Virus record (IMG/VR): IMGVR_UViG_3300025701_000006
Location: 14,328-78,327 of that record
Source: a virus
Direction: 5' to 3' (one strand)
Length of the DNA stretch: 64,000 nucleotides
This document shows, piece after piece, positions 2,408 to 26,865 of this stretch. Numbering within the stretch: the stretch's first letter is position 1; the number at the start of each line of letters is the position of its first letter. Below the pieces are notes generated by a model. It was not told the DNA's origin and searched no databases. It saw nothing but the letters and a program-made list of their open reading frames with translations. The translations under genes and the position numbers were made by a program.

Positions 2408-2425
2408 GTTTTAACTTCCCTGTGT

Positions 2426-2449
2426 AAAGCCCTCTTATGAGGGCTTTTT
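2426..2449 (+). terminator. Intrinsic terminator
   Basis: AAAGCCCTC-TTAT-GAGGGCTTTTT after the phosphoesterase stop. Confidence 0.8.
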
Positions 2450-2458
2450 ACATTATAC

Positions 2459-2485
2459 TAATAATAATAATAATAATAATAATAA
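2459..2485. repeat. (TAA)9 microsatellite
   Basis: Nine perfect TAA units between the terminator and the helicase start. Confidence 0.9.
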
Positions 2486-2500
2486 ATCGGAACTTCTTAA

Positions 2501-3944: not shown

Positions 3945-4619
3945 ATGGAAACAATAGAGCCTATCCAAGTATCTTATAAACATACTAATGATGCTAAAAC
4001 CGCTAAGGCCTGGCTAGATAGTCTACCAGATCTTTTTGCTGCTGACTTTGAAGCAGCTATTAGGTATACTAAAAAAGATATAGAAGAAGCTAAAGCTATT
4101 GTTGAAGATGAAAGCATACCTAAAATAGAAAGAATAGAAGCTAGTTCAATAGCAACTGCTACAGCATTAGGTCATCCTTACCACTGTACCATTACACATT
4201 GCAGTATTGCGTACACGGAAAAAGACGCTTATGTCTTTATTATCGATGCACAACCTATAGCAGATGTTGTTCTTAACTTTCTAACATCTACTGTAAGAAC
4301 GCAAGTATGGCATAATTACAGCTATGATGGCAGGCTAATAAGGTATTACGCAGACAAAGACGCTATTAATGTTGAAGATAGCCAAATATTTGCAAAAACT
4401 CTAATAAACCATGTAGATACTTTTAAAGCTAAAACAAGACTAAAAGATTTAATGGGGGAGTTCTACGGAGACTGGGCAATATCTGCTGATAACTTTACAT
4501 TAGAACAGCAATATGAAGAACATGTACTGCATTATGCAGCTATAGACGCATGCGCAACGTTTAAACTATGGGAATACCTAAATGATTTCGCAAAAGAAAA
4601 CAAAATACAGTCCGCATGA
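3945..4619 (+). CDS. Stand-alone 3'-5' exonuclease domain of family A DNA polymerase
   Basis: ExoI ADFEA, ExoII HNYSYD, ExoIII YAAID; directly precedes the polymerase domain gene. Confidence 0.85.
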   Translation: METIEPIQVSYKHTNDAKTAKAWLDSLPDLFAADFEAAIRYTKKDIEEAKAIVEDESIPKIERIEASSIATATALGHPYHCTITHCSIAYTEKDAYVFIIDAQPIADVVLNFLTSTVRTQVWHNYSYDGRLIRYYADKDAINVEDSQIFAKTLINHVDTFKAKTRLKDLMGEFYGDWAISADNFTLEQQYEEHVLHYAAIDACATFKLWEYLNDFAKENKIQSA

Positions 4620-6417
4620 CCAGTTACCGGCACCAGAACCTAAAACAATAGAGTATGACGTAGATCACTTCTACAAAAACACTGCTAGATACCTAGTTAA
4701 AGACACTGTGCGGGTTATGGACAACGGTTTAGCCATTGACTTGAACAAAGTTATTGAGCTAGAAGAAGTACTCGTAGAACAGCTTACAGAGGTAGATAAA
4801 GAACTAGCGTCTAATAAGTATATCGAACAGTATTTAAACCAACGCTATGCTACGCAAATAAAAGAGTATAAAAAAGACCGTAAATCTAAAATGCGTAATG
4901 CAGACTACTATTTAAAGGAATTTAAACCTTTTGATATGATGCATAGAAGTTACTTTATGGAAGAGTACGCAAGTGCTAAAGGCTGGAGTAAGCCCGAAGA
5001 AAAGCTTCCTACTGGTGTTAGTAAATGGCCTGCAAACCTTGTTAAAAAGTATGCAGCTACTAATAGGCTATTAAAATCTTTACTAGATAAGACTATACCA
5101 CTAAATACACCAGCAGCTGTTAAAGCTATGGAAAAACTAGCCAAAGACAAAGCTGATATGTACAATCAAAAGTACTTGGATCAGGTAAAGTCTCCTGATG
5201 TAAAATATCCAGTATTTAATCCGGCTTCTTCTACACAAAAACAAGAATTGTTTAAGATGCTAGGCTTTGTGTCACAAAAAGTTTCTAAAAAAACAGGTTT
5301 ACCTTCCTGGGACAGAGACGAAATAGAAAATATTAATAAATCTACTAGAGATGAGGATATAAAATCTTTTACTCAAAGTTTTATAGACCATTCTTTTGCT
5401 GCGATAGTAAAAAACAACTTTATTGCTGCTTTTTACAAATACACAGTACAAGGCAGATTATACGGCCAGTACAAACTTTTAGGTGCTAAAACAGGACGTT
5501 ACACAAGCAGTAACCCTAACATGTTAAACATGCCTTCAACTAAATCTAGGTTTGCTAAACCTGTTAAAAAATGTTTTGTAGCACCAGAAGGTAAAATCAT
5601 ACTAGCTGCAGATTACAGTGCTTTGGAAGACAGAGTAATTGCATCTTTATCTAGGGATGTTAACAAATGTGATATATTCTTAAAGAATCTTGATGGTCAT
5701 TCACTAAATGCACTAGGCTATTTTCTGCCAAGAATTGAAAACCTTATGGATATCACAGGAGATACACCTACTGACGCTATTAATTTTAAAAAACTAGTGG
5801 ACAGTGGTGATTCCGTAGCAGATGCAATTAGACAAGAATCTAAAGGTCCTACCTTTGGCTTGGCGTATGGTGCTTACCCACCTAAAATTGCTGCTACTCT
5901 AAAAATATCTTTAGAAGAAGCACAAGAAATCTTTGATAATTATCACAATGTACTGTATCCTGGTATAACAGATTATAGACAAAACTACGTACTACCTACC
6001 GCAAAAACACAAGGTCAATTACATCTAGGATTAGGGTTTACCCTAAAAACAGACGACCCTGAAAAAGATATACGTACGCTAGCTAACGCTACATGCCAGT
6101 TTTGGTCTATACTCACAGCATTAGTAATAAATAAAATGCATGTACTTATCGATCAGATAGGATACCAAGAAGACGTAAAAGTAATATCAACTATATATGA
6201 TTCAATATATTTTGAAGTTACAAACGACCCTAAAATAATTAAATGGGTTAACGATAATCTCATAGCTACTATGCTAGTAGATTTTATGGAAGATCAGACA
6301 GTTGTAAATGAAGCAGAAAGCGACATAGGTTTTAACTGGGCAGAAATGCTTACTATACCTAATAATGCTACTGTTGAATGTATTGAAGACACTTTAAAGA
6401 AACTACAAGAATTGTAG
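4582..6417 (+). CDS. polA: Family A DNA polymerase, polymerase domain
   Basis: FNPASS, TGRYTSSNPNMLN, motif A ADYSALEDR, motif B RQESKGPTFGLAYG (Phe at the E. coli 762-equivalent), motif C IYDSIYFE. Confidence 0.93.
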   Translation: MISQKKTKYSPHDQLPAPEPKTIEYDVDHFYKNTARYLVKDTVRVMDNGLAIDLNKVIELEEVLVEQLTEVDKELASNKYIEQYLNQRYATQIKEYKKDRKSKMRNADYYLKEFKPFDMMHRSYFMEEYASAKGWSKPEEKLPTGVSKWPANLVKKYAATNRLLKSLLDKTIPLNTPAAVKAMEKLAKDKADMYNQKYLDQVKSPDVKYPVFNPASSTQKQELFKMLGFVSQKVSKKTGLPSWDRDEIENINKSTRDEDIKSFTQSFIDHSFAAIVKNNFIAAFYKYTVQGRLYGQYKLLGAKTGRYTSSNPNMLNMPSTKSRFAKPVKKCFVAPEGKIILAADYSALEDRVIASLSRDVNKCDIFLKNLDGHSLNALGYFLPRIENLMDITGDTPTDAINFKKLVDSGDSVADAIRQESKGPTFGLAYGAYPPKIAATLKISLEEAQEIFDNYHNVLYPGITDYRQNYVLPTAKTQGQLHLGLGFTLKTDDPEKDIRTLANATCQFWSILTALVINKMHVLIDQIGYQEDVKVISTIYDSIYFEVTNDPKIIKWVNDNLIATMLVDFMEDQTVVNEAESDIGFNWAEMLTIPNNATVECIEDTLKKLQEL

Positions 6418-11558: not shown

Positions 11559-11730
11559 GTCTATCTTCCAGGCTATCGGAATTGTTTTTGTGTGTGTGCT
11601 GTTAGTAGTACTAACTATTGCTACAATGTACTTAAGTTACATACTAGGCATAGGCTTCATGCTTATATGCCTAGTAGGTATTACTTATTACTTGCTAAGA
11701 CTATTTAGTCCCAAAAACATCCATACCTAA
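11551..11730 (+). CDS. 59-aa two-helix membrane protein (absent from ORF track)
   Basis: TTG start after AAGGA: MIKSIFQAIGIVFVCVLLVVLTIATMYLSYILGIGFMLICLVGITYYLLRLFSPKNIHT. Confidence 0.6.
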   Translation: MIKSIFQAIGIVFVCVLLVVLTIATMYLSYILGIGFMLICLVGITYYLLRLFSPKNIHT

Positions 11731-14700
11731 GTTTATAAGTGGGGGCATAGCTACAGTTGTTATTATATCAACAGGTGTGTATATTGGTGTTAATCCAAAC
11801 ACACCGTACTCATCCCCCGCTTTAATTAGCAAAGATTGATCTTGAATCATTTCTAGATCTAACCCAATACCTGCTCCGGCTAGCGTTATGGCAGTCCTGA
11901 CGGCATGCTGACTACCTGCCTGAGTAATTACATGCTGTATACGTTTTACGTATTTAGTAAACATCAACACACCAATCCTATTTAAATACTCCTCGCCTCT
12001 GCTGTTAGGTAAGTTATAATTAACAAAAGAGTTTAAAAGTTGCGTGTGTCTGCTTGTTTTAGCTGTAGCCAAAAATTGCTCTCTTTCTGCTTTACCTAGT
12101 ACCCTTCTTCTATCTGCTTTACCCATCCTATTTATCTGCTTTCTATATGCTAAAGGCAGGTCTCTTTTCCCATCCGCTTGTTGTTCTTCAATTATTTTTT
12201 GCTTTCTATTCATTACATCTCTAGCAATTAAATCAGACATTTGTAACACTTCTTGATTTACTTTATACCATGCAGTCTCTTTACTTAAGTAAAGCCACTG
12301 TAAAGGAGTTTTAATTAAAGAAGGCACCTTACCTAACAACTTGTCCATTCCATCGCTAATCTTATTAGTATCACCCAGCTTATACATATTTACATCTTCT
12401 ATTACAGCTTGGTACATTCCTAAATCAAACAACTCTTTAATATCACTTTCTGACATTTCTTTTTCTATACGTTTAATTTCATTACGTAGGCGAGTAGCCT
12501 TATCGTTATAGTCACTAATTTCTTCATTATTTTTAAATCTAGTAGTGCTGTACTCTGCCACCAAAGCGTTTAGTTCTACCTTTTTAGCTTCTACTTGTTT
12601 TTGTTTTTTCATAAATTTACGAACGTCTTTAAAGCTATTAGCATAAGCTCCAACAATTTCTGTTAAACCCATTCCTGTATTTAAGGCATACAAAACATTA
12701 GAAATTATGTTTACTATTAGTATCACAGGCATCTTAAGAAGTATGTTACCTTTAGCTACCTTAACAAGATCTACAAAGTAAGCTTCAAAAATATTTATAA
12801 TACGTTTAATAGTACTAGGTAACTTGTTTACTCCATAAGCATCTGTAAATCTGGCATGCGAGTAGCCAAAATATTGGTCCATCAACATACTAGGGATAGG
12901 TAAGCTTTTATCTTCCCTGCTGTTAATAAACCTTTGAAAGGAACTAGGTAGCTGATTAAACAGTTTACGCATTTCTGGATCTGAAGATTCCGCACTTATT
13001 AGGCTATACTCCATTAAGTTATTTTTGCTGTTAGGATTATCGTAAACATCTCGTAGGTTTTGTTTAATAAGCTTTAACGCATTGTCATTTTGTTTTTCTC
13101 TAGCAACTTTGTCTATTAATGTACCTGAAGTCTTTGAAAGTACATCGACTATACTTTTATTTTGCTTTAAAAACTTATTTTTATCTTGTTTGTTCATCAT
13201 GTTTCGGTAATCTACTACATTACCTAGGGCGTCTAAAACAGGTACAGATCCTTTTGGTATATCTTTAAAAGACTTACCGTTATAAAGTTCTTCATTTATG
13301 CGTATTGCTTTAGCATTTAACTGGTTTCTATCAGCTTCAAACCACGCTTGTGCATGTTTTTTAGAATCTTGAAATTGTGCATACCTTGCTTCTCTTAGAG
13401 TCATACCACGACTACCAGGATTTCCTAGACCTACAACACCACTTTGTCTTTCAGGCCTGCTATAGGTATCACTAATGTAAAACCCTATAGGTTCTGCACC
13501 TGATATATCGTTACCATCAAACACTGATGCTAGCTTAAATCCTTGCTTTTCAAGCTCTTCTTGCTCTGATACTAAAGCGTATTTAGTCTCTATGCCATCA
13601 TCAAACAACTGCTTTATGTAGCCTTCTATCATGTGCGATGAATCATTTTTAAACAGTGCCTTTTCTGAGCCTTGTTTAAACGCTTCATATAGATTAACTA
13701 CAGTCCTTACACCAGATTCTTCATTATTAATAAGGTCTACTACTAGTTGCTTGCTAAGGCCTTTTTGTTCTTCTAAAGCACTTAAAGAAGCCATTTCTTC
13801 TATTAACGCTTCTAATTCTTTATTTGTAGGTAAAATGTCGCTAGTCAAATATCCTTTTGCTATATTTCTACTACTAGTATTTTGTGCTTCATGTCCTTCA
13901 CCCGTGACCATAAACTCGCCTAATCCTTTAGCTTGTGCTACTAGCCAATTACCTCTTTTAGGATCTAGTTTTTTTATTCTTTTCTCTAGACGGTTTATTG
14001 CTTTAACTCTATACGCATGATCACCTATTAGTTTACTTACCTGATCAGTTGAATAACCCTTACCGTAGTTTTTGTTTTTATCAAACAGACTACTGGCATT
14101 TGACTCTAATAGTATTTCTGTTAAAGCTATCTTTTGAGGGTCGTTAAGCTCCTTACTAAACGCGTTTGTTATAGCTGTAGCTACGTTACCTACATGAGTG
14201 TTTCTGTATAAATCAATGTTATTAGTTTTTAAACCTAGGAGTTCTACAGGTCCTGATATCTCTTCTGTTACTTTAGGAAGAATACTTCTAACAATTTCTC
14301 TTATAGAGTTATCTGGCTTAATACCGTAACCAGTAAAAAAAGCTCCTGCAGCATCTCGGTAGTAGTTGTTGTATATAGCCTTAGCAAAAAACTTACTAAA
14401 GAAAAGAACCTTCTGTATATGGTTCATATTTTGCGGTATTTCTACTTTATTTTCTGTATCAAATACTTTTGATGCTGCACCATCTAGGAACTCTTCAATT
14501 CTGCCGTCTGTACGGTCTATTAAATCGCTTACTTGTGTAAGTAAGTTAGGATTGTCAGTCAGTTCTTTATCTGCAGTATTGTTTATTTCCGCTAACTTAA
14601 ACGCTAAAGTATGTACTTCTTTTCTAAGGCTTTCGTTTTTGTTTTTAAAAGTATAGTTACCCATAACTGCATTTATTACGTCTGAAAAGAATGTTTTAAT

Positions 14701-15939
14701 GGCCTCAAACATACCTGTTTTTGTTTTATCTTTTAGTTTTACCCCTTCAAGTAGCCCCATAAACCCGGGATTAGTTAAAGAGTACGCTATAAACTCATCA
14801 TTAGACGTTTCGCTATTAAATATGTAATCGTATCTGTCTTTAGCTTCCTTTGACGTTAGAGCAGGCTCTGCACGTTTTATGTCTTGCCATGTGATGTTTT
14901 TACGTGCCTGTGCCATCAAAAAGTTAAGGCGCTCTTTTAACGACGTAGCCTCTCTGCCTTCACTTCTAAGAGCCCAAGCTGTCATTGTATGTACAGTTTC
15001 ATGCATATACACTTCAGCGTTGCTCATATTAGAGCTAGTGAGTTTACTGGTGTTTAACAACATATGCTCTTTGTCTATATCAACCCATCCAGCAGCATGT
15101 TCTTGATTTTCATTAATAAAAATATTCATTCTTCTAAAGAAATGCTCATGCATGTTATCTAGTAAGCTGTTATACCAATAATACATCTTGTCAGTAGTAG
15201 GTTTACCTCCTATAGCGTGTAGATCTGCTAGCATATTCTTCATATCTTCTACACTACCATGTACGTAATTTTTCTTTAGGCTGCTTTTTTCATACCTAAA
15301 AGTTCCCTCATCAAACTGCTCGCTCGATTTTAAGATGTCCTCTGCACTAGCATCACTTTCTACAATTTTTCTCATACTAGCTAAATGACTGTTGGCACTC
15401 GTAGCTAGCTCTTCTCTACGCAGCTCTCTACTGACCCCTGAAGTAGTGCTGGCTATAACGGACCCAATACTTTTAAACTGAGGTATATACATTTTTATTT
15501 GACGTTCTTTAGATGCCCTAGATTCGTTTCTATCTAAATCAAAAGTATAAGTCTGTATATTTTCTTTACCTTTCCTAGTAACTTTAAGTTCTATTACTTC
15601 TATATTATTGGCATCTTTAGTTACTAAAGCGGACTTAACTACGTAATCAGCTCTTTCAGTACCTTCAGTAGGGCGTTTGCTTACAGCAGCCTTAAACACT
15701 TGCCCTAGCTGTTGCTTAGCTAGAACAGTACTTACGTCGTTAGTAAGCTCTGCTCGTGCAAACTCGTCTAACGCTGTAAAATCTTTTTCATTTAACAATT
15801 TAAGGGCTTTTTTATTTCTAGCTATAGACTCAGATAGTACTTCACCTTCTTTAGTGACTAGCATAGTTTTTTCTAGCTTTTCAGCTCTTGTTATACTAGC
15901 CTTAAAGGCTTTTTCTACTGTATTTATATCACAAACCAT
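11701..15939 (-). CDS. Separately encoded C-terminal part of N4-type virion RNA polymerase, with zincin motif
   Basis: HETVH plus downstream DEFIAY. FVNYNLP..EYLNRIGVLMFTKY..RI and AK.NILLK.PV...NII resemble the N4 gp50 C-terminal region as recalled. TAATG coupling to the polymerase gene. Confidence 0.75.
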   Translation of the reverse strand: MVCDINTVEKAFKASITRAEKLEKTMLVTKEGEVLSESIARNKKALKLLNEKDFTALDEFARAELTNDVSTVLAKQQLGQVFKAAVSKRPTEGTERADYVVKSALVTKDANNIEVIELKVTRKGKENIQTYTFDLDRNESRASKERQIKMYIPQFKSIGSVIASTTSGVSRELRREELATSANSHLASMRKIVESDASAEDILKSSEQFDEGTFRYEKSSLKKNYVHGSVEDMKNMLADLHAIGGKPTTDKMYYWYNSLLDNMHEHFFRRMNIFINENQEHAAGWVDIDKEHMLLNTSKLTSSNMSNAEVYMHETVHTMTAWALRSEGREATSLKERLNFLMAQARKNITWQDIKRAEPALTSKEAKDRYDYIFNSETSNDEFIAYSLTNPGFMGLLEGVKLKDKTKTGMFEAIKTFFSDVINAVMGNYTFKNKNESLRKEVHTLAFKLAEINNTADKELTDNPNLLTQVSDLIDRTDGRIEEFLDGAASKVFDTENKVEIPQNMNHIQKVLFFSKFFAKAIYNNYYRDAAGAFFTGYGIKPDNSIREIVRSILPKVTEEISGPVELLGLKTNNIDLYRNTHVGNVATAITNAFSKELNDPQKIALTEILLESNASSLFDKNKNYGKGYSTDQVSKLIGDHAYRVKAINRLEKRIKKLDPKRGNWLVAQAKGLGEFMVTGEGHEAQNTSSRNIAKGYLTSDILPTNKELEALIEEMASLSALEEQKGLSKQLVVDLINNEESGVRTVVNLYEAFKQGSEKALFKNDSSHMIEGYIKQLFDDGIETKYALVSEQEELEKQGFKLASVFDGNDISGAEPIGFYISDTYSRPERQSGVVGLGNPGSRGMTLREARYAQFQDSKKHAQAWFEADRNQLNAKAIRINEELYNGKSFKDIPKGSVPVLDALGNVVDYRNMMNKQDKNKFLKQNKSIVDVLSKTSGTLIDKVAREKQNDNALKLIKQNLRDVYDNPNSKNNLMEYSLISAESSDPEMRKLFNQLPSSFQRFINSREDKSLPIPSMLMDQYFGYSHARFTDAYGVNKLPSTIKRIINIFEAYFVDLVKVAKGNILLKMPVILIVNIISNVLYALNTGMGLTEIVGAYANSFKDVRKFMKKQKQVEAKKVELNALVAEYSTTRFKNNEEISDYNDKATRLRNEIKRIEKEMSESDIKELFDLGMYQAVIEDVNMYKLGDTNKISDGMDKLLGKVPSLIKTPLQWLYLSKETAWYKVNQEVLQMSDLIARDVMNRKQKIIEEQQADGKRDLPLAYRKQINRMGKADRRRVLGKAEREQFLATAKTSRHTQLLNSFVNYNLPNSRGEEYLNRIGVLMFTKYVKRIQHVITQAGSQHAVRTAITLAGAGIGLDLEMIQDQSLLIKAGDEYGVFGLTPIYTPVDIITTVAMPPLINLGMDVFGTK

Positions 15940-18900
15940 TATTTACACCCTTCAATTTTTTCTAATGCACTAACTAGGCTATCTACGTCCGAGACACTAG
16001 ATAACTCATCTACAATCTTACTCTGTACTGATGATTTTACCATAGATAACCCATCAATTACTTTATTAATAGCTTCAACTACTGTTTTATTTGTTATTTT
16101 TGTTTTTCTATTGTTGTAGTATGCTATTAACTTATCAGCTTTTTCAGGGTTTTGAATAATATCCTCTATAACATTATCTGCGTTTACATTATCTACACCT
16201 AAACGTTTATTTAGTTCTTTAAGCAGGGCCCTAGGAGCGGCCTCAAACACTTTTTTTAGTTCTGCAGCTTTTTCTGCAGACCTATCTACAGGTACGTCTA
16301 ATTTAACGGCTTTGTACATATTCTTAAGCGCGTTTTTGTAGCTAAGATCAGCAGAAGTCATACCTTTTTGGTACACCGCTCCAGGTGTTCCAACTAGATT
16401 TCCGTAGTAAGCACCTTCCATTAAACCATTTTCCCCATACCATAATTCCCTAGCTTTTTTAATGCCGGAAATTTCGGTTTTTAGGTTGCCTAATACACTT
16501 TTAGCCAAAGCAGGAAATGCTTCTTTAACCTTAGGGTCTGCGGCTTTTAGTCCTAATGCTGTAACTTTTTCAAAATCTTTACTAAAGGTCGTACTACTTA
16601 TTGTTTTTTCTAACCTATTTGCAAACTCCTGCAGCGCCTCTGCTAGTACATAGTTTTTCTTGCTGTTAATATCGCTAGGGTTACCTTCAGAGTTAATGGT
16701 TTCCATACCTTTTTGGTAAGCAAACCCTGCGTTGTCAGACTGGTTTAAAGGAGCAATTATTGCATCGTGTATTAAAGTTAAAGCACGTAACTGCAAATCG
16801 TTCATCATTAAGCTTATCTCAGCGCCATCAATAGCATGAAACGGTAATACAGAACCAGAACTTATTGCTTCTTCTAGGTACCTAACTAAAGGCGTTACAG
16901 TCCTAGTTTTAGTATTTTTGCCTTCTCCAAGCATAGTCTGTGGTTTTTTACGGCTTAGCTCAATCTCATTAGGAGATCTAGTGGACGTAGTGACTACAGC
17001 TATGACTGCTTTTTTCTCTTTAGCACCGGTAAGCGGGCCTACAAGGTATGGAAAGTCGTCCCATAACTCTTCTAGTACTTTTGCATGATCTTCTAAAGTA
17101 ACTACGTTATTAGGGTTTCTTTTTTGAATATCCTTAAGCTTGTCTACACGTTTTTTATCAAAAATACGAAATGCTACTTTAAACCCATCGTTAATAGCGT
17201 TTTGTACTTTAATAAAAGGCTTAAAGTTTGTTTCAAAAACAGTTTTTACGGCTTCTCCGTATGTAGCACTTACAGTAAACTCTAACAGCTGCTCTAAATT
17301 TCTAGCAGTATTAGTGCCTTTACGTGTTTGCGAAATAACCAATGGTACTTTAAGTTTAATATCTTTTAGTCTAAAGTCTTTTAGGGCTTGCTGGAGCTCT
17401 AATATATTTTTTATCTTTTTATCGCTTTTTGGGTATAAAAACTCTCCTCCTGCTGCCAGTAACTTTTCCGCTGTTTCTTTTGCAGTTAAGTCATTTTCAA
17501 AATCACTAGTCGCAATACCTTTTGCTATATCTTTAGCAACAGAAATACTTAAGTTTTTGACTATTCTTCCTACGCTAGCACTGTAGTTGAATATCATAAA
17601 CGGGTCTTTAAATAACGCACGTAATTTTTTGTCTATACTACTAGCAACACCTGAAGATCCAATAGTTTCACCTCCAGGGAGTAACTGTTTAATAGCTTCA
17701 AAGACTTTACTTCCAGACCTGCCTTCACCTCTTGATACCGTCAAAGAAGTACTGCCCGACGTTACTTCTTCATTAACTAGGGTGATAGTGTCCGTAGCCA
17801 TATTCTCATATGAATCTAAAAATCCTATCTCTCCTTTTTTTCCTGCAGCTAAAATATCCGCTGCAGACATACCTTGTGAAGGGTCAAATGGAATACCATC
17901 CCCTTTAAAACTAGACTGCAGTAGTACATCTTGATACGATTTAGTAATAATACCTACTCGGGCAAAATGAGAATGCATATCATCAAGTATAGGCATCTGT
18001 TGTATTTTATTGGCAAAACCACTAGTTAATGAGTCAAACTCTAACGACAGTGCAGAAGTAACTTTACCATTACCAGTAAGGGCATCTTGTACTTTTTCTA
18101 AAAAATCTAGTGCTTGTAATGCGTGGGAAAGATGTTCCGCTTCAAGTTCATACTCAATACCTTTCATATCAGCAGGATCTGCATCACTGCTACTGTCTGT
18201 ATTAGCGTCACCAGTAACTTCGGTATTTAAGGTTTCAATTGTAAACTTGCCTGTAGACATAATAGACTTTTTAGCTTCTGCTATTTCTGCTTTATTCATA
18301 CTAAGCACAGCATTACCATAGTCTATAATATCTTTAACATCCATCTTATCTACGCCCTTACCTAGGGCTTGTCCTAGAGCTAATCTCACAGTAAAGCTTT
18401 GATCTGCGTCCAAGGGGTCACTTACACCTTCTACGTTAAACTCTAAACCACCTTCTGTATTTGTATTTACATCATAAGTAAGTCTATGCAGTTTAGGTAC
18501 GATAAAAAATCTATGCAGTTTATCTGTTTGAGGTTGTGTAGTATTTGAATCTAGCATAAACCTATTGTTACTTGCATAAAAGTAAGGATAGTGCATAGAT
18601 GGATCTAAGTTACCTACTCTATCCATTTTTTCTCTAAGTAATCTAAGCTCATCAATGCTTTTTTCTATGTCTCTATTTTTAGCTTCTTGTACTTCTTTCT
18701 CATCGTAAAACAGGCTATCAAATTTATCACTTGTTAAATCAATAAAGCCTAGTAACGTTTTGATGTTGCTTTCATCTGCATCTACTGCTTCTAAGAACTC
18801 GTCAACAAGGTTAACATCGATACCATACTCGGTTTCCATAGCAAGCTTCATAGTCTCTTTAGCTTCCTCAGGAACAGTTATACCTGCTATATCGTTACGA

Positions 18901-21900
18901 ACCTCACTAACAGCTTTGTTGATACGATCTTTTGTAAGAGGAGAAAAAGAAGGCTCTTTACGCTCTGTAGTAGCCTCAGGAAACCCTTTTACTGCTCCTT
19001 CGTACTTTTCTACAAAAGCAGTTACTTCTTCTGTAAGAGCGTTATTAGTAAAGTTACCCTGACGTACCGGTCTATCTTTCAGATGAATAAAGAAAGTTTT
19101 AGTTTCAATTTCTCTAACTTCTCCATCTTTAAATAACCTAGCTATGTCATTTGAACTAGGGCTAGTACTGTCCAATATTCCTTGTTCTTGTGCTATTAAT
19201 ACTGCCATGTTGCCAAGGTCAGCAAGTAATGCCTCGTACTCTGCTGAAGATGTAGTGCTGTTTTTCTTTTTAGACAGACCAAGTTGCTTTAAGGTAGCTT
19301 TGCCCAAAGAGTTAGCTACAGTTTTAAGAAGTGCTCCGTTATCCCTAGCAAAATCACGCATTTCTTTAGTTACTTCATGTGGCTGGAGGCCTAGCATGGT
19401 AGCTATATCTTCGTCAGACTTATAACCTCTAGACACCTTTGCTTTATCATTAGCAGCCATTTCGCCTATAGCTAGGTACATAGCAGCTAAAACTTCTTTG
19501 TTAGGTTTGCCTTTGTTGTTAAACACTAAACCTCTAGCAGGGGAGTTATGCAAAAACAAGTTACCAGGTAAGAATTTACCATTTACTCTTATATCAGTTT
19601 GGTCTGATAGCTCTGCTTCACTAACTTTTGCTAAACTTTTATCTGCTGCAGTTACAAATTTATTTGCTGCTGTTTTTATGGCGTAAGGTAAGTTATCAAA
19701 AGATAGAGAATTAAGCACAGTAGTTTTGTCTGCTTTTACAAGCTTACCTGCATCCTGAACTACTTTTCTTGTACCTAAGAATATATGTTCATTACCGTAG
19801 AATATAGTACCTCTACCTTTATTAGCGGCTTCATATCCTTCTATTGCTTTATCAGACAAAGGATCCCTAGATAGTTTTACTACAACTTCACCAGTCTTGG
19901 ATTTTAAAAATAGTATCTCATACAGATCTTTTTTGTTTTTAGAAAAGGACTTCTCACCTAGTATACTGTTAATAACCGATTTACTTGTATTGCCTATACT
20001 TTCTAATAACCTACTAACAGCTTTTTCTTTTTTATCAAAAGAAAGGTCTTGATCTATTATACCTTGCCAATCTTTTAAAGCTTGCTTACCTGCTTTTCCT
20101 TTTTCCTCTTGAGCTTCAATGTACTTGGTTACACCGGCCTCTAGCGCTTTATCTTTAAATGCGATTGGGTCTGGATCTGTAGCTCCAAGAACTGCTTCTG
20201 CTTCATTTTTTACATCGTCTATAAAACGACGTTCTAAAAAAGATGTTAGCCTATCACTTTTACTACTAAAGCTGTTGTCTTTTACTGTATCGAATAAAGT
20301 AGAATACTCTTTTTTAGCAGCAGCTTTGGCTTCATCAGTAAGGGCTTCGCCTGTAACAGAGTCGATAGATGTCTCTATAGATCTATAAAGAGTCACCAAT
20401 GCCTCTTTGTTATCCTCACGAAACTGCGCAGCAGTATTGCTTTTCTCTAGTTTTTCTTTGTAATTACGTAAAGCTTTTTTATTATCCGCAGTTTCTTTAA
20501 TTAAGATATGGCGAGACTTATCTTTTAGAATAGCGTAACCTTTATCCTTTATTTTTTTAAGCAACGCTTCTTTACCTAGTGCTACTTCTTTGGTAAGTTT
20601 TCCTTGAACTAGGTCAGAGTCTAGTACAATAGTTGCTCCTGCTTCCATAGCAGCCACTAAGGAAGCTTCACCTTCTACACCTAAGTCAGGAACTTTAAAA
20701 CCTTTTTTAATACTTTTAGTACCTACACTATTTATAAGTACTACGTCATCAGCAGAAAACTCTTCATTATTTATTAAAAAACTATTAGATTTATAATAGT
20801 CACCTTTAAGAGCCCATTTAGCTGTAGTATCTTTTCCTAATATTACTTTGTTTACTTCAGATACTTTTTTGTTTAGGTCATTAAGAACTTTACTAACGCT
20901 ACTTAAGTAACTGGTGTCTGCTTTACGTGCAGTTTTACTGCGTCCTTCTTTTACAGGTATAGTAATACTTCCAGACATAACAGAAATATCATCAGTTTTA
21001 AAACTAGCATTGCTGCTGATAGTCTGCATTTCTCTTTTTATATCTTTTAAGTATACAGATTTCCTAGCTATTAAATCTTTAGCACCCTTAATGTTAGGTA
21101 CCATTTTACCGTTTTTAAACTCGACAGTAATTAGATAAGGGTCATCATACTTTTTAGTCTTATTATTGTACTTGTTGTACTCAGTTTTGACATATTGGGT
21201 TTTTTTAGACGTTAACGGTTTTTTATTTAAATCTGCTGCTACCCTTTTAGCTTCTTCTATACCTCTATTTAAAGATGTAACTGAAGCGCTAACAGAACTA
21301 TTAATCCTAGATAAAGCTACCATTTCACTGTTTATAGCTTTTTTGTTGGGATTAGAGCTTTCTAGTAGCCCTTTAAGCCTAGATATCCTAGCTGCGTAGC
21401 CAGTACTTCCTTTAGTAGCTTCATCTTCGACCGTAGTATAACTTTTTACTAAACTGTCATAACGCTCTACACTTACATTGTTACGGGTAGCGAAGCTTTT
21501 CATTGTAGTAGTAAATGCTTCATCGTAAGACCTGCCACTACCTAGTAGTGTATTAACTATGCGCTCCGCGTCTACACTACGAGTGTAATCTGTGTATTCC
21601 TTTTGCTCTTCATCAAGGTTAGGAGCTGACCCTAATACATTTCCACTTGTAGTAGTGCTATTTTCTACCGCAGTAAAATTCTCTATACTATTATTTCTAA
21701 CAAAATCTTGAATAACATCATAAGTCTCTTCTAATGTCTGACTTGTTTTTCCGGTAAGTGCAGACTCTAAAGCAACTAATTCAGGAGCAACCGAATTTGG
21801 CTCTATAGAACTATTGCTGTAACTTCCTGATTTAAACGTTGATACTATGCTATCAAAAGCTTTTTCTGCGGTAACATCATTACCGTCACCTAACACTTTT

Positions 21901-24227
21901 CCTAAATCTGTAATTGCGCTTTTAACGTTAGCAGGGACAGAATTAATAGTGTCTGCTTTAGTCTTTTCTTCTAGAGACTGTCGTATCGACTTACGAACTA
22001 TTTTACCTGTAAGTTGGGTATTTTTGTTTTCACGAACAAACTGTTCAAGTCCGTCTAAAATTCTGTTGTATACAGCTTCTCCAGCCTCTTTTTGTTCTTT
22101 AGGTGAAGAGTCAATAACGTATTTAGTAGCGTTAATTTCATCTATATCATCTAGTAAAGCACCTACATTGTTTGCGGTAACCCCTTCTTTAGCAGTAGTA
22201 TTTGCCACTCTAGTTAATAAAGCTTTGTAAGCATTTTTGTCTGATACTATAGTATCTTCTGATAACGTTTCGTTAACGTCAGTATTAGGCAGTGTGCCTG
22301 GTACATTACCTTTAGCGGTGTTGCCAGTAATAGGCTGATTACCTTGCCCAAACATACCAAACCCAGTACGTAAAGAACCTACAGCCTCAAACTGCCCAGC
22401 ACCACCTGCACCTAGTAAAGCAGCAATACCTGCTTCTGTTGTGTTTCTCTCATCTGTAATAAAGTCAGTAAACGTTTCAACATCTTTAAATAGTTCTGTA
22501 CCAAACCTAGTGTTAAATAGCTCCATCATTGTTTGTGAGTATTCTTGAGCAGCTTCTACTGTGGCTAATGCACCTGACTTAATTACTCCTTTACCCATCA
22601 TAAGAGTAGCATTTGCAAATTGTTTATTGGTTAGGTCTTTTATAGCAGGGGCTATAGAGGTAAGGATCCCTGGATTCTTTATTATATTTATATTAACAAA
22701 TTTATCTAGGTTCTGATTAAGCAGTTGTACACCTAAACTTCTTGCAAAGTAACTAGCTTTATCCTCACTATTTAATTCATTCCCATTATTATTCTTTACA
22801 AACTGTTCGTACTGATTGTTTACGTTACCTATAGCTGCTGTTAATTGTCCAGACTGGCTTACTAAAAGACTTTTAGCTCCATCTGTACTAGCCAGAGCTT
22901 TTAATTTTTCTGCTCTGCCTTGTCCCTTGGTGATTTTATTAGTATTTACAGCTTCTTCAATACTTTTAACAGTTTTACTATATTTTGTACCTGCACCTAG
23001 CAGGTTTAAAAACTTACCTGGACTAATCCAAGCTAAAAGAGCACCTAGGCTAGTCCCAAGCAATTCTGGGGTAGTGTAAATTTCTCCTAGTGCGCTAAAC
23101 GCAGCACCTACTTTGTCTATCGTAGATGCTTCTTTATCTACCAATACGTCGTAGTAACCACCAACACTTTCGACGGTTTCTTGTAGATTTTTTGGGTCAT
23201 AACCAAAGAAACTGTTTACAGCAGAAGCTTTACTTTCTTGGTCACCAAGGTCATAAAGCCCTGTAAAGTCACCTAAAGCATCTAAAGGATTTACCGCTAG
23301 TTCAGACACAAAAGTAGCGCCAAAGCCTGAAAAAGCATTGCCAACTCTGTTTATGGCCTCTACAACCTTGTTTGTTTCCATAGTAGGTTCATAGTAACTA
23401 GGTTGCTTAAGGTCTGAAGCGTCTGTACTTTCTACAGGTTCAGCACCTCCTCCTTTAACTATTGCCATAGCTTTATTAAAACCAGCAATGACTTTTTCTT
23501 TATCTACTTTTTCAATATCATACGACTGGTTAGCCAAAGATTCTCTATTTATGTAGTACTCACTAGAGCCACTACCAAACAGTGCATCTTTTTCTTCTTT
23601 GGTTATTGTACGAATACCTTGAGGAGAGTTATAATCGTATAGACCATCTTTTCTGCCTCTAATAACTCTGTTATTAAAGTTATTTAAATTTGTGTGGTTT
23701 AAGCTTTCAAAAGCCTGTGCGGCGTATTTTTGAAGGTTGTCATCATACCTTTTATCATTTACATCAACACCAGCGGTACCTGAGCTCCACCCTTGTTCTT
23801 TTCCTGCTCTGATTAAGCCTTCTTCTTCCGCTTTCCCAGGAATGTAACGATAGTCAGATGAATTAAACCTGCCAGAAGATAAGCCAAGCTTTACAGGATC
23901 GTAGTTTTCTGGAGTAAAAGCCTGCGCAGGATCTATTGCTTTGCCTTCTTCTTTTACACCGTACATATAAGATCTACGGTCATTTCGACTAGAGTCTGGT
24001 AAAGAATACCCTTCCCTAACTAAGTCATTTAAAAACCCCATTTCATCTTTAGACCAGTCTTCAGAAATACCCCAAATCTTGTTCCCATTATTTTCTATGT
24101 ACCCATCACCTAGGTCCGTGTAAGTACTAGAATCAAGAGACTCAGAGGCATAACTACGCTCTGATAGATTTGCAATTTTTTCTTCTTTGCTCTTAGAAAT
24201 ACGGGAGAGTTTATCGGTAAATGACAT
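15939..24227 (-). CDS. Virion-encapsidated single-subunit RNA polymerase (N4 gp50-like), 2762 aa
   Basis: T7-family motifs: NNRF..PQTDKLHR, motif A EFDSLTSG, motif B RALFKDPFMIFNY, motif C IHDAI. ATG at 24227 after AAGGA. Confidence 0.9.
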   Translation of the reverse strand: MSFTDKLSRISKSKEEKIANLSERSYASESLDSSTYTDLGDGYIENNGNKIWGISEDWSKDEMGFLNDLVREGYSLPDSSRNDRRSYMYGVKEEGKAIDPAQAFTPENYDPVKLGLSSGRFNSSDYRYIPGKAEEEGLIRAGKEQGWSSGTAGVDVNDKRYDDNLQKYAAQAFESLNHTNLNNFNNRVIRGRKDGLYDYNSPQGIRTITKEEKDALFGSGSSEYYINRESLANQSYDIEKVDKEKVIAGFNKAMAIVKGGGAEPVESTDASDLKQPSYYEPTMETNKVVEAINRVGNAFSGFGATFVSELAVNPLDALGDFTGLYDLGDQESKASAVNSFFGYDPKNLQETVESVGGYYDVLVDKEASTIDKVGAAFSALGEIYTTPELLGTSLGALLAWISPGKFLNLLGAGTKYSKTVKSIEEAVNTNKITKGQGRAEKLKALASTDGAKSLLVSQSGQLTAAIGNVNNQYEQFVKNNNGNELNSEDKASYFARSLGVQLLNQNLDKFVNINIIKNPGILTSIAPAIKDLTNKQFANATLMMGKGVIKSGALATVEAAQEYSQTMMELFNTRFGTELFKDVETFTDFITDERNTTEAGIAALLGAGGAGQFEAVGSLRTGFGMFGQGNQPITGNTAKGNVPGTLPNTDVNETLSEDTIVSDKNAYKALLTRVANTTAKEGVTANNVGALLDDIDEINATKYVIDSSPKEQKEAGEAVYNRILDGLEQFVRENKNTQLTGKIVRKSIRQSLEEKTKADTINSVPANVKSAITDLGKVLGDGNDVTAEKAFDSIVSTFKSGSYSNSSIEPNSVAPELVALESALTGKTSQTLEETYDVIQDFVRNNSIENFTAVENSTTTSGNVLGSAPNLDEEQKEYTDYTRSVDAERIVNTLLGSGRSYDEAFTTTMKSFATRNNVSVERYDSLVKSYTTVEDEATKGSTGYAARISRLKGLLESSNPNKKAINSEMVALSRINSSVSASVTSLNRGIEEAKRVAADLNKKPLTSKKTQYVKTEYNKYNNKTKKYDDPYLITVEFKNGKMVPNIKGAKDLIARKSVYLKDIKREMQTISSNASFKTDDISVMSGSITIPVKEGRSKTARKADTSYLSSVSKVLNDLNKKVSEVNKVILGKDTTAKWALKGDYYKSNSFLINNEEFSADDVVLINSVGTKSIKKGFKVPDLGVEGEASLVAAMEAGATIVLDSDLVQGKLTKEVALGKEALLKKIKDKGYAILKDKSRHILIKETADNKKALRNYKEKLEKSNTAAQFREDNKEALVTLYRSIETSIDSVTGEALTDEAKAAAKKEYSTLFDTVKDNSFSSKSDRLTSFLERRFIDDVKNEAEAVLGATDPDPIAFKDKALEAGVTKYIEAQEEKGKAGKQALKDWQGIIDQDLSFDKKEKAVSRLLESIGNTSKSVINSILGEKSFSKNKKDLYEILFLKSKTGEVVVKLSRDPLSDKAIEGYEAANKGRGTIFYGNEHIFLGTRKVVQDAGKLVKADKTTVLNSLSFDNLPYAIKTAANKFVTAADKSLAKVSEAELSDQTDIRVNGKFLPGNLFLHNSPARGLVFNNKGKPNKEVLAAMYLAIGEMAANDKAKVSRGYKSDEDIATMLGLQPHEVTKEMRDFARDNGALLKTVANSLGKATLKQLGLSKKKNSTTSSAEYEALLADLGNMAVLIAQEQGILDSTSPSSNDIARLFKDGEVREIETKTFFIHLKDRPVRQGNFTNNALTEEVTAFVEKYEGAVKGFPEATTERKEPSFSPLTKDRINKAVSEVRNDIAGITVPEEAKETMKLAMETEYGIDVNLVDEFLEAVDADESNIKTLLGFIDLTSDKFDSLFYDEKEVQEAKNRDIEKSIDELRLLREKMDRVGNLDPSMHYPYFYASNNRFMLDSNTTQPQTDKLHRFFIVPKLHRLTYDVNTNTEGGLEFNVEGVSDPLDADQSFTVRLALGQALGKGVDKMDVKDIIDYGNAVLSMNKAEIAEAKKSIMSTGKFTIETLNTEVTGDANTDSSSDADPADMKGIEYELEAEHLSHALQALDFLEKVQDALTGNGKVTSALSLEFDSLTSGFANKIQQMPILDDMHSHFARVGIITKSYQDVLLQSSFKGDGIPFDPSQGMSAADILAAGKKGEIGFLDSYENMATDTITLVNEEVTSGSTSLTVSRGEGRSGSKVFEAIKQLLPGGETIGSSGVASSIDKKLRALFKDPFMIFNYSASVGRIVKNLSISVAKDIAKGIATSDFENDLTAKETAEKLLAAGGEFLYPKSDKKIKNILELQQALKDFRLKDIKLKVPLVISQTRKGTNTARNLEQLLEFTVSATYGEAVKTVFETNFKPFIKVQNAINDGFKVAFRIFDKKRVDKLKDIQKRNPNNVVTLEDHAKVLEELWDDFPYLVGPLTGAKEKKAVIAVVTTSTRSPNEIELSRKKPQTMLGEGKNTKTRTVTPLVRYLEEAISSGSVLPFHAIDGAEISLMMNDLQLRALTLIHDAIIAPLNQSDNAGFAYQKGMETINSEGNPSDINSKKNYVLAEALQEFANRLEKTISSTTFSKDFEKVTALGLKAADPKVKEAFPALAKSVLGNLKTEISGIKKARELWYGENGLMEGAYYGNLVGTPGAVYQKGMTSADLSYKNALKNMYKAVKLDVPVDRSAEKAAELKKVFEAAPRALLKELNKRLGVDNVNADNVIEDIIQNPEKADKLIAYYNNRKTKITNKTVVEAINKVIDGLSMVKSSVQSKIVDELSSVSDVDSLVSALEKIEGCK

Positions 24228-24257
24228 TAAAAAATCCTTAGTAGGTAATCTACAGGT

Positions 24258-24266
24258 ATTATAACA
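24258..24266 (-). promoter_or_regulatory. Extended -10 promoter for the vRNAP gene
   Basis: TGTTATAAT about 30 nt upstream of the ATG. Confidence 0.6.
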
Positions 24267-24305
24267 CAAAAACCCCCTAGTTCCATATAGAGACTAAGGG
24301 GTTTA
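24267..24305 (-). terminator. Intrinsic terminator after the gp51-like gene
   Basis: AAACCCCTTAGT...ACTAGGGGGTTTTT on the - strand. Confidence 0.7.
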
Positions 24306-24322: not shown

Positions 24323-26386
24323 TTACCTAATATTACCGGACGCTAAAGACTGTGCACGAGTAGGAGGACCAACAATAGGACTAGCATTAGAAGTCCTACG
24401 GACTAGTGCAGGTATCTCAAAAGTGGCCTCTTGCTGACGGGCTGTTCTAGCCGCTGCTTGTGCCGGAGTAGGAGGTCCGTAAGTATTACCCCCCTTAGCC
24501 CCTGTTCTATTAAACGCTCTATTACGACTAGCAGTATTTAGTTTAGCCCGTAACCCACCAATAAAACTACTAATAGCCGCAGGATTTTTAAAACCGTTAT
24601 AAAGGCCCATAAAACCGTTAAATGCTTTACGACCCCCATATACGTTCATAATGGGAGTACTCAGAACTAATGCTTGTTCCTCTTCTGTAGGAAGTGTAAG
24701 TTCATATCTACTTCCATCAGCGAAAACAGGATCAATATTACCTGATTGTACATCAGCTACTATTTTTTCAATTCTGTCTTTAGTTAATGGCTGTTCAGTA
24801 CCATATGTCATGTTTAAAGCATCTATATTTTCTTTAACTGATAAATCTGTACTTCCGGCAACATTGGCAAACTCGTATAGATTAGCTAAAGCGTCTCTAT
24901 CAGAATTAGGTCTGATGCTTAAATCACTTAAAGTTGTAAGATTATTAGGTTTTGTCGGTTTTACGTTTGAAAGTATCTGTTTAAGCTCTAAAGCGTTAAC
25001 TACAGCAGTATCAGGATTTTTTCCTTGTTGTACTGCTTCTTGGCGTGTTTTAGTGATTTCCGCTGGAGTAAGAACTGCCTCCCTGTTTTTAGGAGTAGGT
25101 AAAGAAGCATCCACAGTAGATGAACCACTATCAGTAGATTCTGAAGTTGTAGGCACTCTTATAGGAAATCCTAGTGCTTGAGGCATTAAGTCTCTTAAAC
25201 CACCAGTAAACGCAGCCCTATTAGTGTTTACGTAATCAGGTGCAGCTACTACCTCAGGCATAAAACTATCAACAAGCTCTTCACGAGTAAGCTCACCGTT
25301 TGAATTTTCTAGTTTTTGTATGCCTTTAGCAAAAGATGTAAAAGCATCCGAGCTGCCTTTCGGACTCTTAAAAAAGCCTACTGAAACAAAGTCTTTTAAA
25401 GAATTTTTTGCAATAGATGGGTTTACGCCTGCGTTTACAGCGTCTTTATACATGTTTAAAAGTGTAATATCATCAAGAGGACCTGCATCAATTTCTTCTG
25501 CAATGTAATTACTTACATCTAGTTCACTTGTTTTTTTATCTCCAAATTTATTTTCTTTTGATTTATTAGCATTCCATACTTTAAAAGATATATCTGCAAG
25601 CTTATTAGCTTGCGTTTGTTGAGCCTTTTGCGCAGCAACAGCTAGTTTTGTCAAATTTGCCGTACTTTCATACCCCATAGACAATTTATCAGCAGTAGTA
25701 CTGGCTACTTGAGGAGATACCCCTTTAGAAAGTAAATCGTTATAGATTCTAATATTTTCATTTTCACGATACACAGGCTTATTTGATACTACGTAGTTAT
25801 CAAACTCTTTATTAAAATTAGCTAGTTGCTCATTAAAACTGGTATAGTCTTCTTTTGATATTTCACCGTTTTTGTAGTAATCCTGAATAGCTGCTAACGG
25901 ATCTTCAGGCAAGTCTGCTTGAGTAGGAGAAAAATCTTCTCCATCATCTCCAAACATGCCGCGTATTGCCTTTAATTCATTACTATTGTTAATCTGATTA
26001 ATAAAGAAGTTGTTTGCAAGAGTTTTTGCACCTTCAGCTCTACCTTGTTCAAGAATAGTTTTAAGCTCAATGTCATTATCTATTGCTGCATTTGCCGCAC
26101 TTTTTCTGTCAAACATGCTCAGGTTACTAAGTGCTGCTCTTTCTGCTTGTTCTCCAGCTAGTTTAGCATTGTACATGTCAGTTTGTCGCTTATCTAAACG
26201 CTTTTGTCTAGCTATTTCATCATTATACCTAGTAGTTTGACGCTGTTCTAAAAGGTTTTGACGGCTAAGTTGGTCTTGATACCGTTTTTCGTCAGCTTCT
26301 CTGTCTTTTCTTTGGTTGCCTTGCTTCCTATAACCACTAGCTATATCACTAAGAAGGCGACTGGTCGATTCAAAAGGGTCTATCAT
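24323..26386 (-). CDS. Internal virion/ejection protein (N4 gp51 position)
   Basis: 687 aa, helical, no Cys seen, immediately upstream of vRNAP. Confidence 0.6.
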   Translation of the reverse strand: MIDPFESTSRLLSDIASGYRKQGNQRKDREADEKRYQDQLSRQNLLEQRQTTRYNDEIARQKRLDKRQTDMYNAKLAGEQAERAALSNLSMFDRKSAANAAIDNDIELKTILEQGRAEGAKTLANNFFINQINNSNELKAIRGMFGDDGEDFSPTQADLPEDPLAAIQDYYKNGEISKEDYTSFNEQLANFNKEFDNYVVSNKPVYRENENIRIYNDLLSKGVSPQVASTTADKLSMGYESTANLTKLAVAAQKAQQTQANKLADISFKVWNANKSKENKFGDKKTSELDVSNYIAEEIDAGPLDDITLLNMYKDAVNAGVNPSIAKNSLKDFVSVGFFKSPKGSSDAFTSFAKGIQKLENSNGELTREELVDSFMPEVVAAPDYVNTNRAAFTGGLRDLMPQALGFPIRVPTTSESTDSGSSTVDASLPTPKNREAVLTPAEITKTRQEAVQQGKNPDTAVVNALELKQILSNVKPTKPNNLTTLSDLSIRPNSDRDALANLYEFANVAGSTDLSVKENIDALNMTYGTEQPLTKDRIEKIVADVQSGNIDPVFADGSRYELTLPTEEEQALVLSTPIMNVYGGRKAFNGFMGLYNGFKNPAAISSFIGGLRAKLNTASRNRAFNRTGAKGGNTYGPPTPAQAAARTARQQEATFEIPALVRRTSNASPIVGPPTRAQSLASGNIR

Positions 26387-26424: not shown

Positions 26425-26865
26425 TTAAATGTTACGTGGTTTGTTTAGGTTAGCTCTTTTGTCAGAGAGAAACTTACGATTGTCTTGAGCATTAGCTAAA
26501 TTAACTTTCCCTAAGGCTAGTTGTTGTTCCATAGCTTTTTTCCTATCACCGTACCCAAGAAGGTTAAGGGCTAAACCACCAATAGTCGCCATGTTGCTGA
26601 TAGCAAACTCGTCTTTAAGCAAATTACCAAAATAGCTATCTTCACCTGGAGGAGCAATTTCCGTACCACCCGTAATTCTTTTTGTATTAGGATCTACTTT
26701 CAGGCCATCCAAAGCGTATGTTTTTCCTCCCATCCCCTCTAAAAGACTATTATCACCATAAGTTACCGCTTGTGCAGGTGTTACGGTACTGGGCTGATAG
26801 TTCATACCTTGCGTAAATGCACTAACCCCAACTGGTTTAGTAAAAAAATCATATTCGTCGTTCAT
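26425..26865 (-). CDS. Small ejection protein (N4 gp52 position)
   Basis: 146 aa, Gly-rich hydrophobic helix followed by coiled coil; synteny. Confidence 0.55.
   Translation of the reverse strand: MNDEYDFFTKPVGVSAFTQGMNYQPSTVTPAQAVTYGDNSLLEGMGGKTYALDGLKVDPNTKRITGGTEIAPPGEDSYFGNLLKDEFAISNMATIGGLALNLLGYGDRKKAMEQQLALGKVNLANAQDNRKFLSDKRANLNKPRNI

Follow-up and report, generated by a model that had tools for sequence, protein, structure and literature searches.

The 2026 structure paper on coliphage N4 (PMC13434306) raises anew an open question: how does an enzyme of 3500 residues fit into a capsid and pass through a channel of ~35 Å? A locus on a viral DNA of 64,000 nucleotides (nt) puts the question in another form: how could such an enzyme be carried and delivered when its gene is broken in two? 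This DNA (IMG/VR virus record IMGVR_UViG_3300025701_000006, positions 14,328 to 78,327; the whole stretch is called the window below) encodes its virion RNA polymerase (vRNAP) in two adjacent genes. In fact, each product carries one single cysteine, located at the end that faces the other piece. The genes and the cysteine codons are listed here, the window's N piece and C piece being proteins P0001 and P0002, and A2 and A1 being the N-piece and C-piece alignments, respectively (aa, amino acids).

15939..24227, minus strand: N piece of the split vRNAP, an N-terminal region plus a domain of the T7-like single-subunit RNA polymerase (RNAP) type, 2762 aa plus TAA
11701..15939, minus strand: C piece, homologue of the C-terminal domain of N4 gp50, 1412 aa plus stop
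15937..15941, minus strand: TAATG stop/start overlap coupling the N- and C-piece genes; an AAGGG run that resembles a Shine-Dalgarno sequence precedes it by a few bases
15945..15947, minus strand: TGT codon of Cys2761, sole cysteine of the N piece and its penultimate residue; invariant column in A2
15931..15933, minus strand: TGT codon of Cys3, sole cysteine of the C piece; invariant column in A1 and A3

A first-pass annotation of the window had described these as the only two cysteines in about 4170 residues and had read them as the means by which the halves are rejoined tail to head. Counting over both translations gives exactly one cysteine per protein (residue 2761 of 2762 and residue 3 of 1412), and the coordinates confirm the rest of that description: the N piece ends in ...KIEGCK, the C piece opens with MVCDIN, TAATG couples the two genes and the TGT codons lie 11 nt apart. 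With open reading frames (ORFs) in the window averaging 0.55% cysteine (109 of 19,770 residues), ~23 would be expected in these 4174 residues, and 2 are present. The virion genes that adjoin the pair are likewise cysteine-poor. Thus, the depletion of both pieces is ordinary, as the whole virion module avoids this residue; the unusual part is the position of the two cysteines that remain.

Is this placement peculiar to one genome? We gathered C pieces by a word-indexed search and by running HMMER exhaustively over 1.84 billion representatives (996 hits, of which the best 150 were examined), together with unsplit relatives, and counted those stand-alone C pieces that reach 1100 aa or more (n=153). 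A single cysteine lies within the first 10 residues, mostly at residue 3 or 4, in 142 of the 153. The other 11 comprise two with the terminal cysteine plus extras, eight with none and one with a cysteine elsewhere, so that 216,000 residues of C piece hold only four non-terminal cysteines. On the other side of the junction, all 48 N-piece homologues (25-100% identity; 128,830 residues) have a cysteine 1-12 residues from the C-terminus, inside the last four residues in 46 cases. Only two further cysteines occur among them, one in an over-extended start and one that is residue 3 of the middle piece P0061. In contrast, cysteine is absent altogether from 43 of the 53 one-piece relatives, N4 gp50 among them, and the other 10 carry a few, scattered ones. 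The earlier expectation that split vRNAPs would have terminal cysteine pairs and unsplit ones would not is thereby borne out, and the opposite outcome, terminal cysteines that are not conserved in split homologues, is excluded. Proteins that depart from the pattern include P0158, P0175, P0191, P0202, P0224 and P0251.

The pattern also holds for whole loci and for other geometries of splitting. From 79 IMG/VR loci taken, 18 have both sides of the junction present, and the pair is found across it in all 18. Where the chain is split three ways, at locus L008 (2497, 408 and 1356 aa), the middle piece has exactly two cysteines, residue 3 and the penultimate one; P0061 (1734 aa) shows a two-ended pattern like it. 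Another split site is used at L041, where a 974-aa N-terminal piece ending in ...ILNCFNGK precedes a 2544-aa piece that holds the polymerase and C-terminal domains and carries Cys10, and the long pieces P0100, P0238 and P0244, akin to those of L041, have an N-terminal cysteine as well. Among the pieces examined, the outer ends of split chains never bear a cysteine and the number of cysteines equals the number of facing ends. False splits come without the pair: this is the case of the frameshifts in L047 and of an in-frame stop within the polymerase domain of L024, whose genuine junction, further on, does have it. Selection keeps both pieces free of cysteine except for one residue per facing end. 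The gap at the junction ranges from -11 to +26 nt in relatives, all three stop codons occur and TGT and TGC are both used, which argues that selection acts on the residues, at the protein level; conservation of the junction at the nucleotide level is rejected on the same variation in gap, stop and cysteine codon.

Some of these loci have features of their own. At L041, ~1.7 kb (3970-5725) separates the two pieces and contains two small cysteine-containing ORFs (162 and 196 aa); this insert may have caused or exploited that split. The in-frame stop of L024 (1105-1107) falls between ...PIHFIDGA and MGSIITELNGNLTAIHDAI and has no flanking cysteine; it may stem from an error in sequencing, mark a pseudogene or be recoded. 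Gene starts also deserve attention. Database entry P0035 extends the N-piece ORF of the window from a TTG (24228-24269, minus strand), adding 14 residues that include two cysteines, and such over-extension by gene callers can mask the single-cysteine pattern. P0036, a 90%-identical homologue from another assembly, begins MSFTDKLS at the same place, which supports the ATG at 24227 as the N-piece start.

Do the cysteines come and go with the split? In a C-terminal-domain tree (FastTree, 206 rows), the change between split and one-piece states occurs on at least eight well-supported branches, and the N-terminal cysteine follows the split state in 7-8 of 8 independent contrasts and opposes it in none (p about 0.008). 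The cysteine rule is conserved and has arisen repeatedly. The window pieces themselves fall in a fully split clade of 86 representatives. The closest view of a change comes from a sister pair with C-terminal domains 55% identical, in which L018 is one piece with no cysteine whereas P0181/L023 is split and has Cys3. Relative to its one-piece sister, L023 has an extra 39-residue helical tail that ends in cysteine and a 158-residue head that starts MNC; in other sister pairs just ~20-70 N-terminal residues are unmatched. The split is not always a bare nick, given the ~200 extra junction residues in at least one sister pair, and such unmatched residues suggest that some one-piece forms nested among split ones may be secondary fusions, produced by deletion of the junction.

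Is the split itself real? In the collection searched, the sole cultured phages with this split are the Alteromonas phages AltAD45 (vB_AmaP_AD45-P1 to P4, ORF127/ORF126), whose pieces of 2481-2495 and 1409 aa are 27-32% identical to those of the window and have one cysteine each at the facing end. In AD45-P1 (2495 and 1409 aa), the two ends read ...SKHCKQ and MTICTNP. The window shares both features of the AltAD45 type, namely adjacent N and C pieces that part between RNAP motif C and HExxH, and one cysteine per facing terminus with none elsewhere. RefSeq presents the AltAD45-P1 vRNAP locus (L001, NC_021532, 1564-13288) as a misc_feature 'potential frameshift' and not as two coding sequences. 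That label could favor the view that the split is an assembly error, or that the ORFs are fused by programmed readthrough, frameshifting or protein splicing, with the cysteines as a by-product. Several findings oppose this view. Four metagenome runs of marine or seawater origin (2017 and 2024; depth 10-592x), one of which may be the window's own source, yield contigs that contain the 701-base junction of the window without any base change or gap, so that the sequencing error considered in the first-pass annotation is dismissed. No RNA data set was listed as containing the junction, which carries no information on its expression. The same break, with a stop and a restart of varied geometry, is found in more than 150 diverged homologues. 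For AltAD45-P1 to P4, the available text of the paper reports that the stop codon was re-amplified by polymerase chain reaction and resequenced and that gels show two polypeptides of 270 and 175 kDa; its authors put forward a fission event (PMC3821669). Protein splicing is further opposed by the absence of an intein-like domain and by the location of the cysteines at the very termini. Split inteins need theirs ~100 and ~35 residues inside. A split intein was thus rejected, on the wrong cysteine positions and the missing domain, and so was lipidation of the MxC N-terminus, as signal peptide and lipobox are absent. Junction diversity, resequencing and the two AltAD45 bands together exclude recoding, splicing and artefact, and we give an unreal split a negligible chance.

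Are the two products really parts of a vRNAP? The C piece, which had been likened at first sight to the C-terminal domain of the N4 enzyme, indeed matches phrog_2206 at profile positions 2292-3379 of 3406 (E 3e-115), and a C-piece profile built from 20 homologues matches the N4 gp50 structures 9PNR and 9PNT over residues 2456-3378 (E 8e-39). When its first 700 residues are modelled with AlphaFold (mean predicted local distance difference test score, pLDDT, of 62), the best Foldseek match is 9PNT, the N4 vRNAP (probability 0.99). The N piece P0001 has no direct Pfam, PHROG or PDB sequence match, and hmmsearch with a profile of the last 1300 residues of N pieces did not match N4 gp50. It was hhalign alone that found gp50, aligning A2 (19 homologues) at P0001 residues 1602-2353 with gp50 residues 1169-1871 (probability 97%), with the motif A aspartate and the motif B R/K/Y in register; tblastn also ties N-piece residues 1606-2070 to annotated vRNAPs. 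The catalytic motifs, and a further motif of the C piece, are located as follows.

18033..18035, minus strand: Asp2065, aspartate of RNAP motif A (EFDSLTSGF), invariant in A2 and aligned by hhalign to EADGVTNG of N4 gp50
17583..17621, minus strand: RNAP motif B (R2203...K2207...Y2215, RALFKDPFMIFNYSAS), aligned to N4 RGIAKNPLTITIYGSG
16764..16769, minus strand: His2487-Asp2488 of RNAP motif C (IHDA), with H2487, D2488 and A2489 invariant in A2
14989..15003, minus strand: HExxH motif (MHETVHTM; H313, E314, T, V, H317) in the C-piece head, invariant in A1

The HDA triplet we take to be motif C from established knowledge of T7-like RNAPs. With these assignments, the window has RNAP motifs A, B and C and homology to the C-terminal domain (~2100-3500) of an N4-type vRNAP, in the order N-terminal domain, T7-like RNAP, large C-terminal domain that it shares with N4 gp50 and other Schitoviridae vRNAPs (e.g. 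gp71 of Pseudomonas phage DEV). It lacks the single ~3500-aa polypeptide and the total absence of cysteine. In fact, N4 gp50 is one chain of 3500 aa with no cysteine, as the first-pass annotation had it, whereas the window has two ORFs (2762 and 1412 aa) parted by a real TAA. Both keep cysteine out of the protein body, but the window alone adds one per broken end.

The break has RNAP motif C on one side and the HExxH motif of the C-terminal domain on the other. The disordered linker that joins the RNAP and C-terminal domains in N4, residues 2102-2123, is inside that interval (~1948-2227) (PMC13434306). In N4 numbering the junction is placed imprecisely, at ~2140 by one alignment and at ~2220 by another, and the HExxH alignment gives split forms up to ~300 extra residues near it.

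How, then, would the two pieces be held together? We consider it likely that the thiols of Cys2761 and Cys3 form one intermolecular, tail-to-head disulfide in the extracellular virion, restoring a continuous chain. This reading is the best supported because the number and placement of the cysteines match the facing ends exactly and the outer ends have none; the comparison across relatives therefore supports what the first-pass annotation had suggested from one locus. The oxic seawater habitat indicated by the marine metagenome runs also counts for a disulfide.

There is a structural precedent. Cryo-electron microscopy of the virion of cyanophage A4 (Anabaena phage A-4L) shows a disulfide between gp27 Cys1715 and gp26 Cys5 in the pre-ejectosome, with the C-terminal helix of gp27 sitting in a cleft of gp26 (PNAS 2025, PMC12002296). 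We checked the A4 genome: gp27 has 1717 aa and its sole cysteine is third from the end, gp26 has 1114 aa and its sole cysteine is Cys5, and the two genes are 5 nt apart. Thus, the A4 pair and the window share adjacent genes with a single cysteine at the upstream C-terminus and the downstream N-terminus, with the difference that the disulfide is seen in A4 while the window is known from its genes. The systems differ in other respects. A4 belongs to a different family (Saffermanviridae, 41.7 kb), its gp27 and gp26 are large, mostly helical ejection proteins for which an RNAP domain is not reported, and the bond was described as a stabilizing detail of a pentameric ring and not as the rejoining of a split protein.

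Two of the competing explanations have to be weighed against this precedent. The pieces might associate non-covalently, with the cysteines acting as a transient assembly checkpoint, as a redox sensor or as partners in a periplasmic disulfide made by host Dsb enzymes during ejection. The cytoplasm in which assembly occurs is reducing, the RNAP and C-terminal domains touch in N4 (PMC13434306) so that the pieces might hold together unaided, and the extra junction residues of some split forms could be a docking module. Such an association, however, would not need cysteines, nor their placement at the extreme termini, nor one per facing end down to the middle pieces, and the A4 virions show the bond before ejection; we find it unlikely. 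Alternatively, the two thiols could jointly hold a bridging metal ion (e.g. Zn, Cu or Fe), an option that the first-pass annotation also named. Acidic residues often stand beside the cysteine (E-G-C, D-C and E-C in N pieces, C-D in many C pieces) and the C piece contains an HExxH motif. Still, each junction offers just two thiols, the adjacent Asp, Glu and His are not invariant, the HExxH motif is ~310 residues away and is also present in the cysteine-free, one-piece N4 gp50, and the sole such pair with a solved structure, that of A4, is joined by a disulfide. We rate the metal site as quite unlikely.

The terminal cysteines could also be bonded to a third partner (portal, capsid, another ejection protein, lipid or DNA) and not across the junction. 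Two loci lend themselves to this idea: L070, whose N-terminal cysteine has no visible partner gene, and L069, where a one-piece vRNAP ends in ...WSCDC. Against it, cysteines occur at facing ends alone, never at outer ends, and their number always matches the number of junctions. Moreover, the two window proteins that stand in the positions of N4 gp51 and gp52 have no cysteine, and the other virion proteins are without a matching conserved terminal cysteine.

24323..26386, minus strand: 687-aa protein at the position of N4 gp51 (644 aa), 0 Cys, candidate co-ejected protein by position and size
26425..26865, minus strand: 146-aa protein at the position of N4 gp52 (150 aa), 0 Cys, candidate co-ejected protein by position and size

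We hold a third partner to be very improbable. Taken together, the metal, non-covalent and third-partner explanations account less well than a disulfide does for where the cysteines lie and for their parity.

Several points nevertheless weigh against the tail-to-head disulfide. Eight of the 153 C pieces have no cysteine and one has it elsewhere; at least three of these eight lack 120-195 residues that their sisters have at the N-terminus. For L070, no upstream ORF ending in cysteine was found in the 16 kb examined. The A4 precedent is not backed by homology: hmmsearch --max of A4 gp26 and gp27 against the N- and C-piece profiles gave at best E 0.05-0.3 with negative bit scores, and the 50 best Foldseek matches for the model of the C-piece head (mean pLDDT 62) include no A4 chain, so that A4 is an analogy or a case of convergence. 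Phage assembly takes place in a reducing cytoplasm, and the bond would therefore have to form in the filled capsid or after lysis. In this phage, as in any split vRNAP, we infer the disulfide from sequence patterns. The separate AltAD45 bands of 270 and 175 kDa are neutral at best, being what reducing sodium dodecyl sulfate polyacrylamide gel electrophoresis would give (PMC3821669, in its available text). A complex prediction for the last 250 aa of the N piece with the first 700 aa of the C piece, run on the window sequences alone, scored 0.00, the fold of the partners being uncertain, and speaks for neither side.

With these reservations, how might a disulfide-linked enzyme work? We envision that the thiols at the facing ends would oxidize to a tail-to-head disulfide in the assembled, extracellular virion. 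This bond would restore a covalently continuous and nearly unbranched chain that could be packaged like the one-piece N4 enzyme; the Cys-free remainder of each piece would prevent wrong pairings. The linked pieces would then pass the narrow tail as one thread, and the reducing cytoplasm of the host would part them. The disulfide nature of the link, its presence in the virion, ejection as a single thread and reductive release are all steps that we infer. The N4 tail is ~35 Å wide, and its cargo is believed to cross it either unfolded or like beads on a string (PMC13434306). In the great majority of pieces the cysteine is at most 5 residues from the terminus, which suggests that a linear chain is needed rather than a mere interface staple.

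A more speculative extension, which we regard as possible but doubtful, is that the disulfide is a redox-triggered coupling. When oxidized, it would make one thread and fix the order of packaging and ejection; once cut in the cytoplasm, it would release the RNAP piece from the C-terminal domain, which in N4 is an allosteric regulator of the polymerase and may remain at the envelope. If this were true, facing terminal cysteines would be a general and portable means for tailed phages to build ejected 'polyproteins' from separately encoded modules; further examples would be the L008 middle piece with its HExxH module and the A4 pair, which is unrelated.

What is new here, and what follows from it? 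The fission in AltAD45 (2013), the suppression of cysteine in Schitoviridae ejection proteins and one ejection-protein disulfide (A4, 2025) are already published. A literature search, with most subscription journals outside its reach, returned no paper stating a terminal-cysteine rule for split vRNAPs. Cysteine avoidance in ejected Schitoviridae proteins has been ascribed to their passage through tail and periplasm (PMC11445570; PMC3821669, available text), and homologues of DEV gp71 contain 0.00075% cysteine (PMC11445570). To the AltAD45 authors, the presence of cysteine spoke against an injection of ORF127 (Garcia-Heredia et al. 2013, PMC3821669); the terminal, facing positions are not remarked on in the available text of that paper. 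The cysteine rule reverses this inference, and the known avoidance becomes a positive design rule: no cysteine except where a bond is wanted. Split vRNAPs are in this sense a natural experiment on the packing and passage of a giant enzyme. That breaks are tolerated if capped by matched terminal cysteines argues for the importance, in packaging or ejection, of a cargo that is covalently continuous and linear. On the practical side, vRNAP loci that carry a frameshift label should be annotated as two or three genes, a facing pair of terminal cysteines separates genuine splits from sequencing errors, and AltAD45 with its host Alteromonas macleodii AD45, a cultured and harmless marine pair, allows a direct test of the rule.

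The surroundings of the pair also resemble N4. The neighbors form a phage structural module, with major head, portal and tail proteins, and N4 and the window have in common a vRNAP gene beside genes of gp51 and gp52 size. N4 gp51 and gp52 have no cysteine, like the window proteins in their positions. These proteins have no PHROG match, and their likeness to N4 is one of position and size alone. Packaging and ejection of the window vRNAP are predicted from this structural-module position and from the synteny with N4 gp50-52. Elsewhere in the window (42100-42474, minus strand), a 124-aa protein that starts MSCSVAKF (Cys3, plus Cys106) overlaps the start of a 1917-aa tail protein; a facing partner was not seen for this MxC protein.

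Two of the loci discussed above have cysteines in other contexts. The RNAP and C-terminal domain piece of L070 (5888-13204; 2438 aa) begins MSTDAC, and its partner may be encoded elsewhere or its cysteine may have another partner. The one-piece, 3419-aa vRNAP of L069 (1874-12133) has only two cysteines, both at the extreme C-terminus, which may link to another virion protein.

The HExxH motif makes the C piece a candidate peptidase, as judged from its sequence and model. It aligns weakly to IHELVH near residue 2227 of the Cys-free N4 gp50, and a putative zinc-binding motif is mentioned for the corresponding domain in the DEV paper (PMC11445570). The C-piece model is at its best over residues 230-400 (pLDDT 75-89), and this part of the fold weakly resembles zincin peptidases (MATCAP, lethal factor, M61). 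In L008 (8265-9491), the 408-aa middle piece is an extra HExxH module (THEMIH) with a cysteine at each end; it is 30% identical to residues 150-452 of the L075 C piece, and it suggests that separately encoded modules can join the chain.

At the other end of the enzyme, no cell-wall hydrolase domain was detected in the N piece of the window. Such domains are found at the N-terminus of several relatives, N pieces or one-piece vRNAPs (P0054, P0056, P0060, P0069 and P0090), and comprise phage lysozyme (PF00959), VgrG3-like C-terminal (PF21277), SLT (PF01464) and glucosaminidase (PF01832) types. From their sequence, these predicted hydrolases are in keeping with an N-terminal domain that takes part in envelope crossing.

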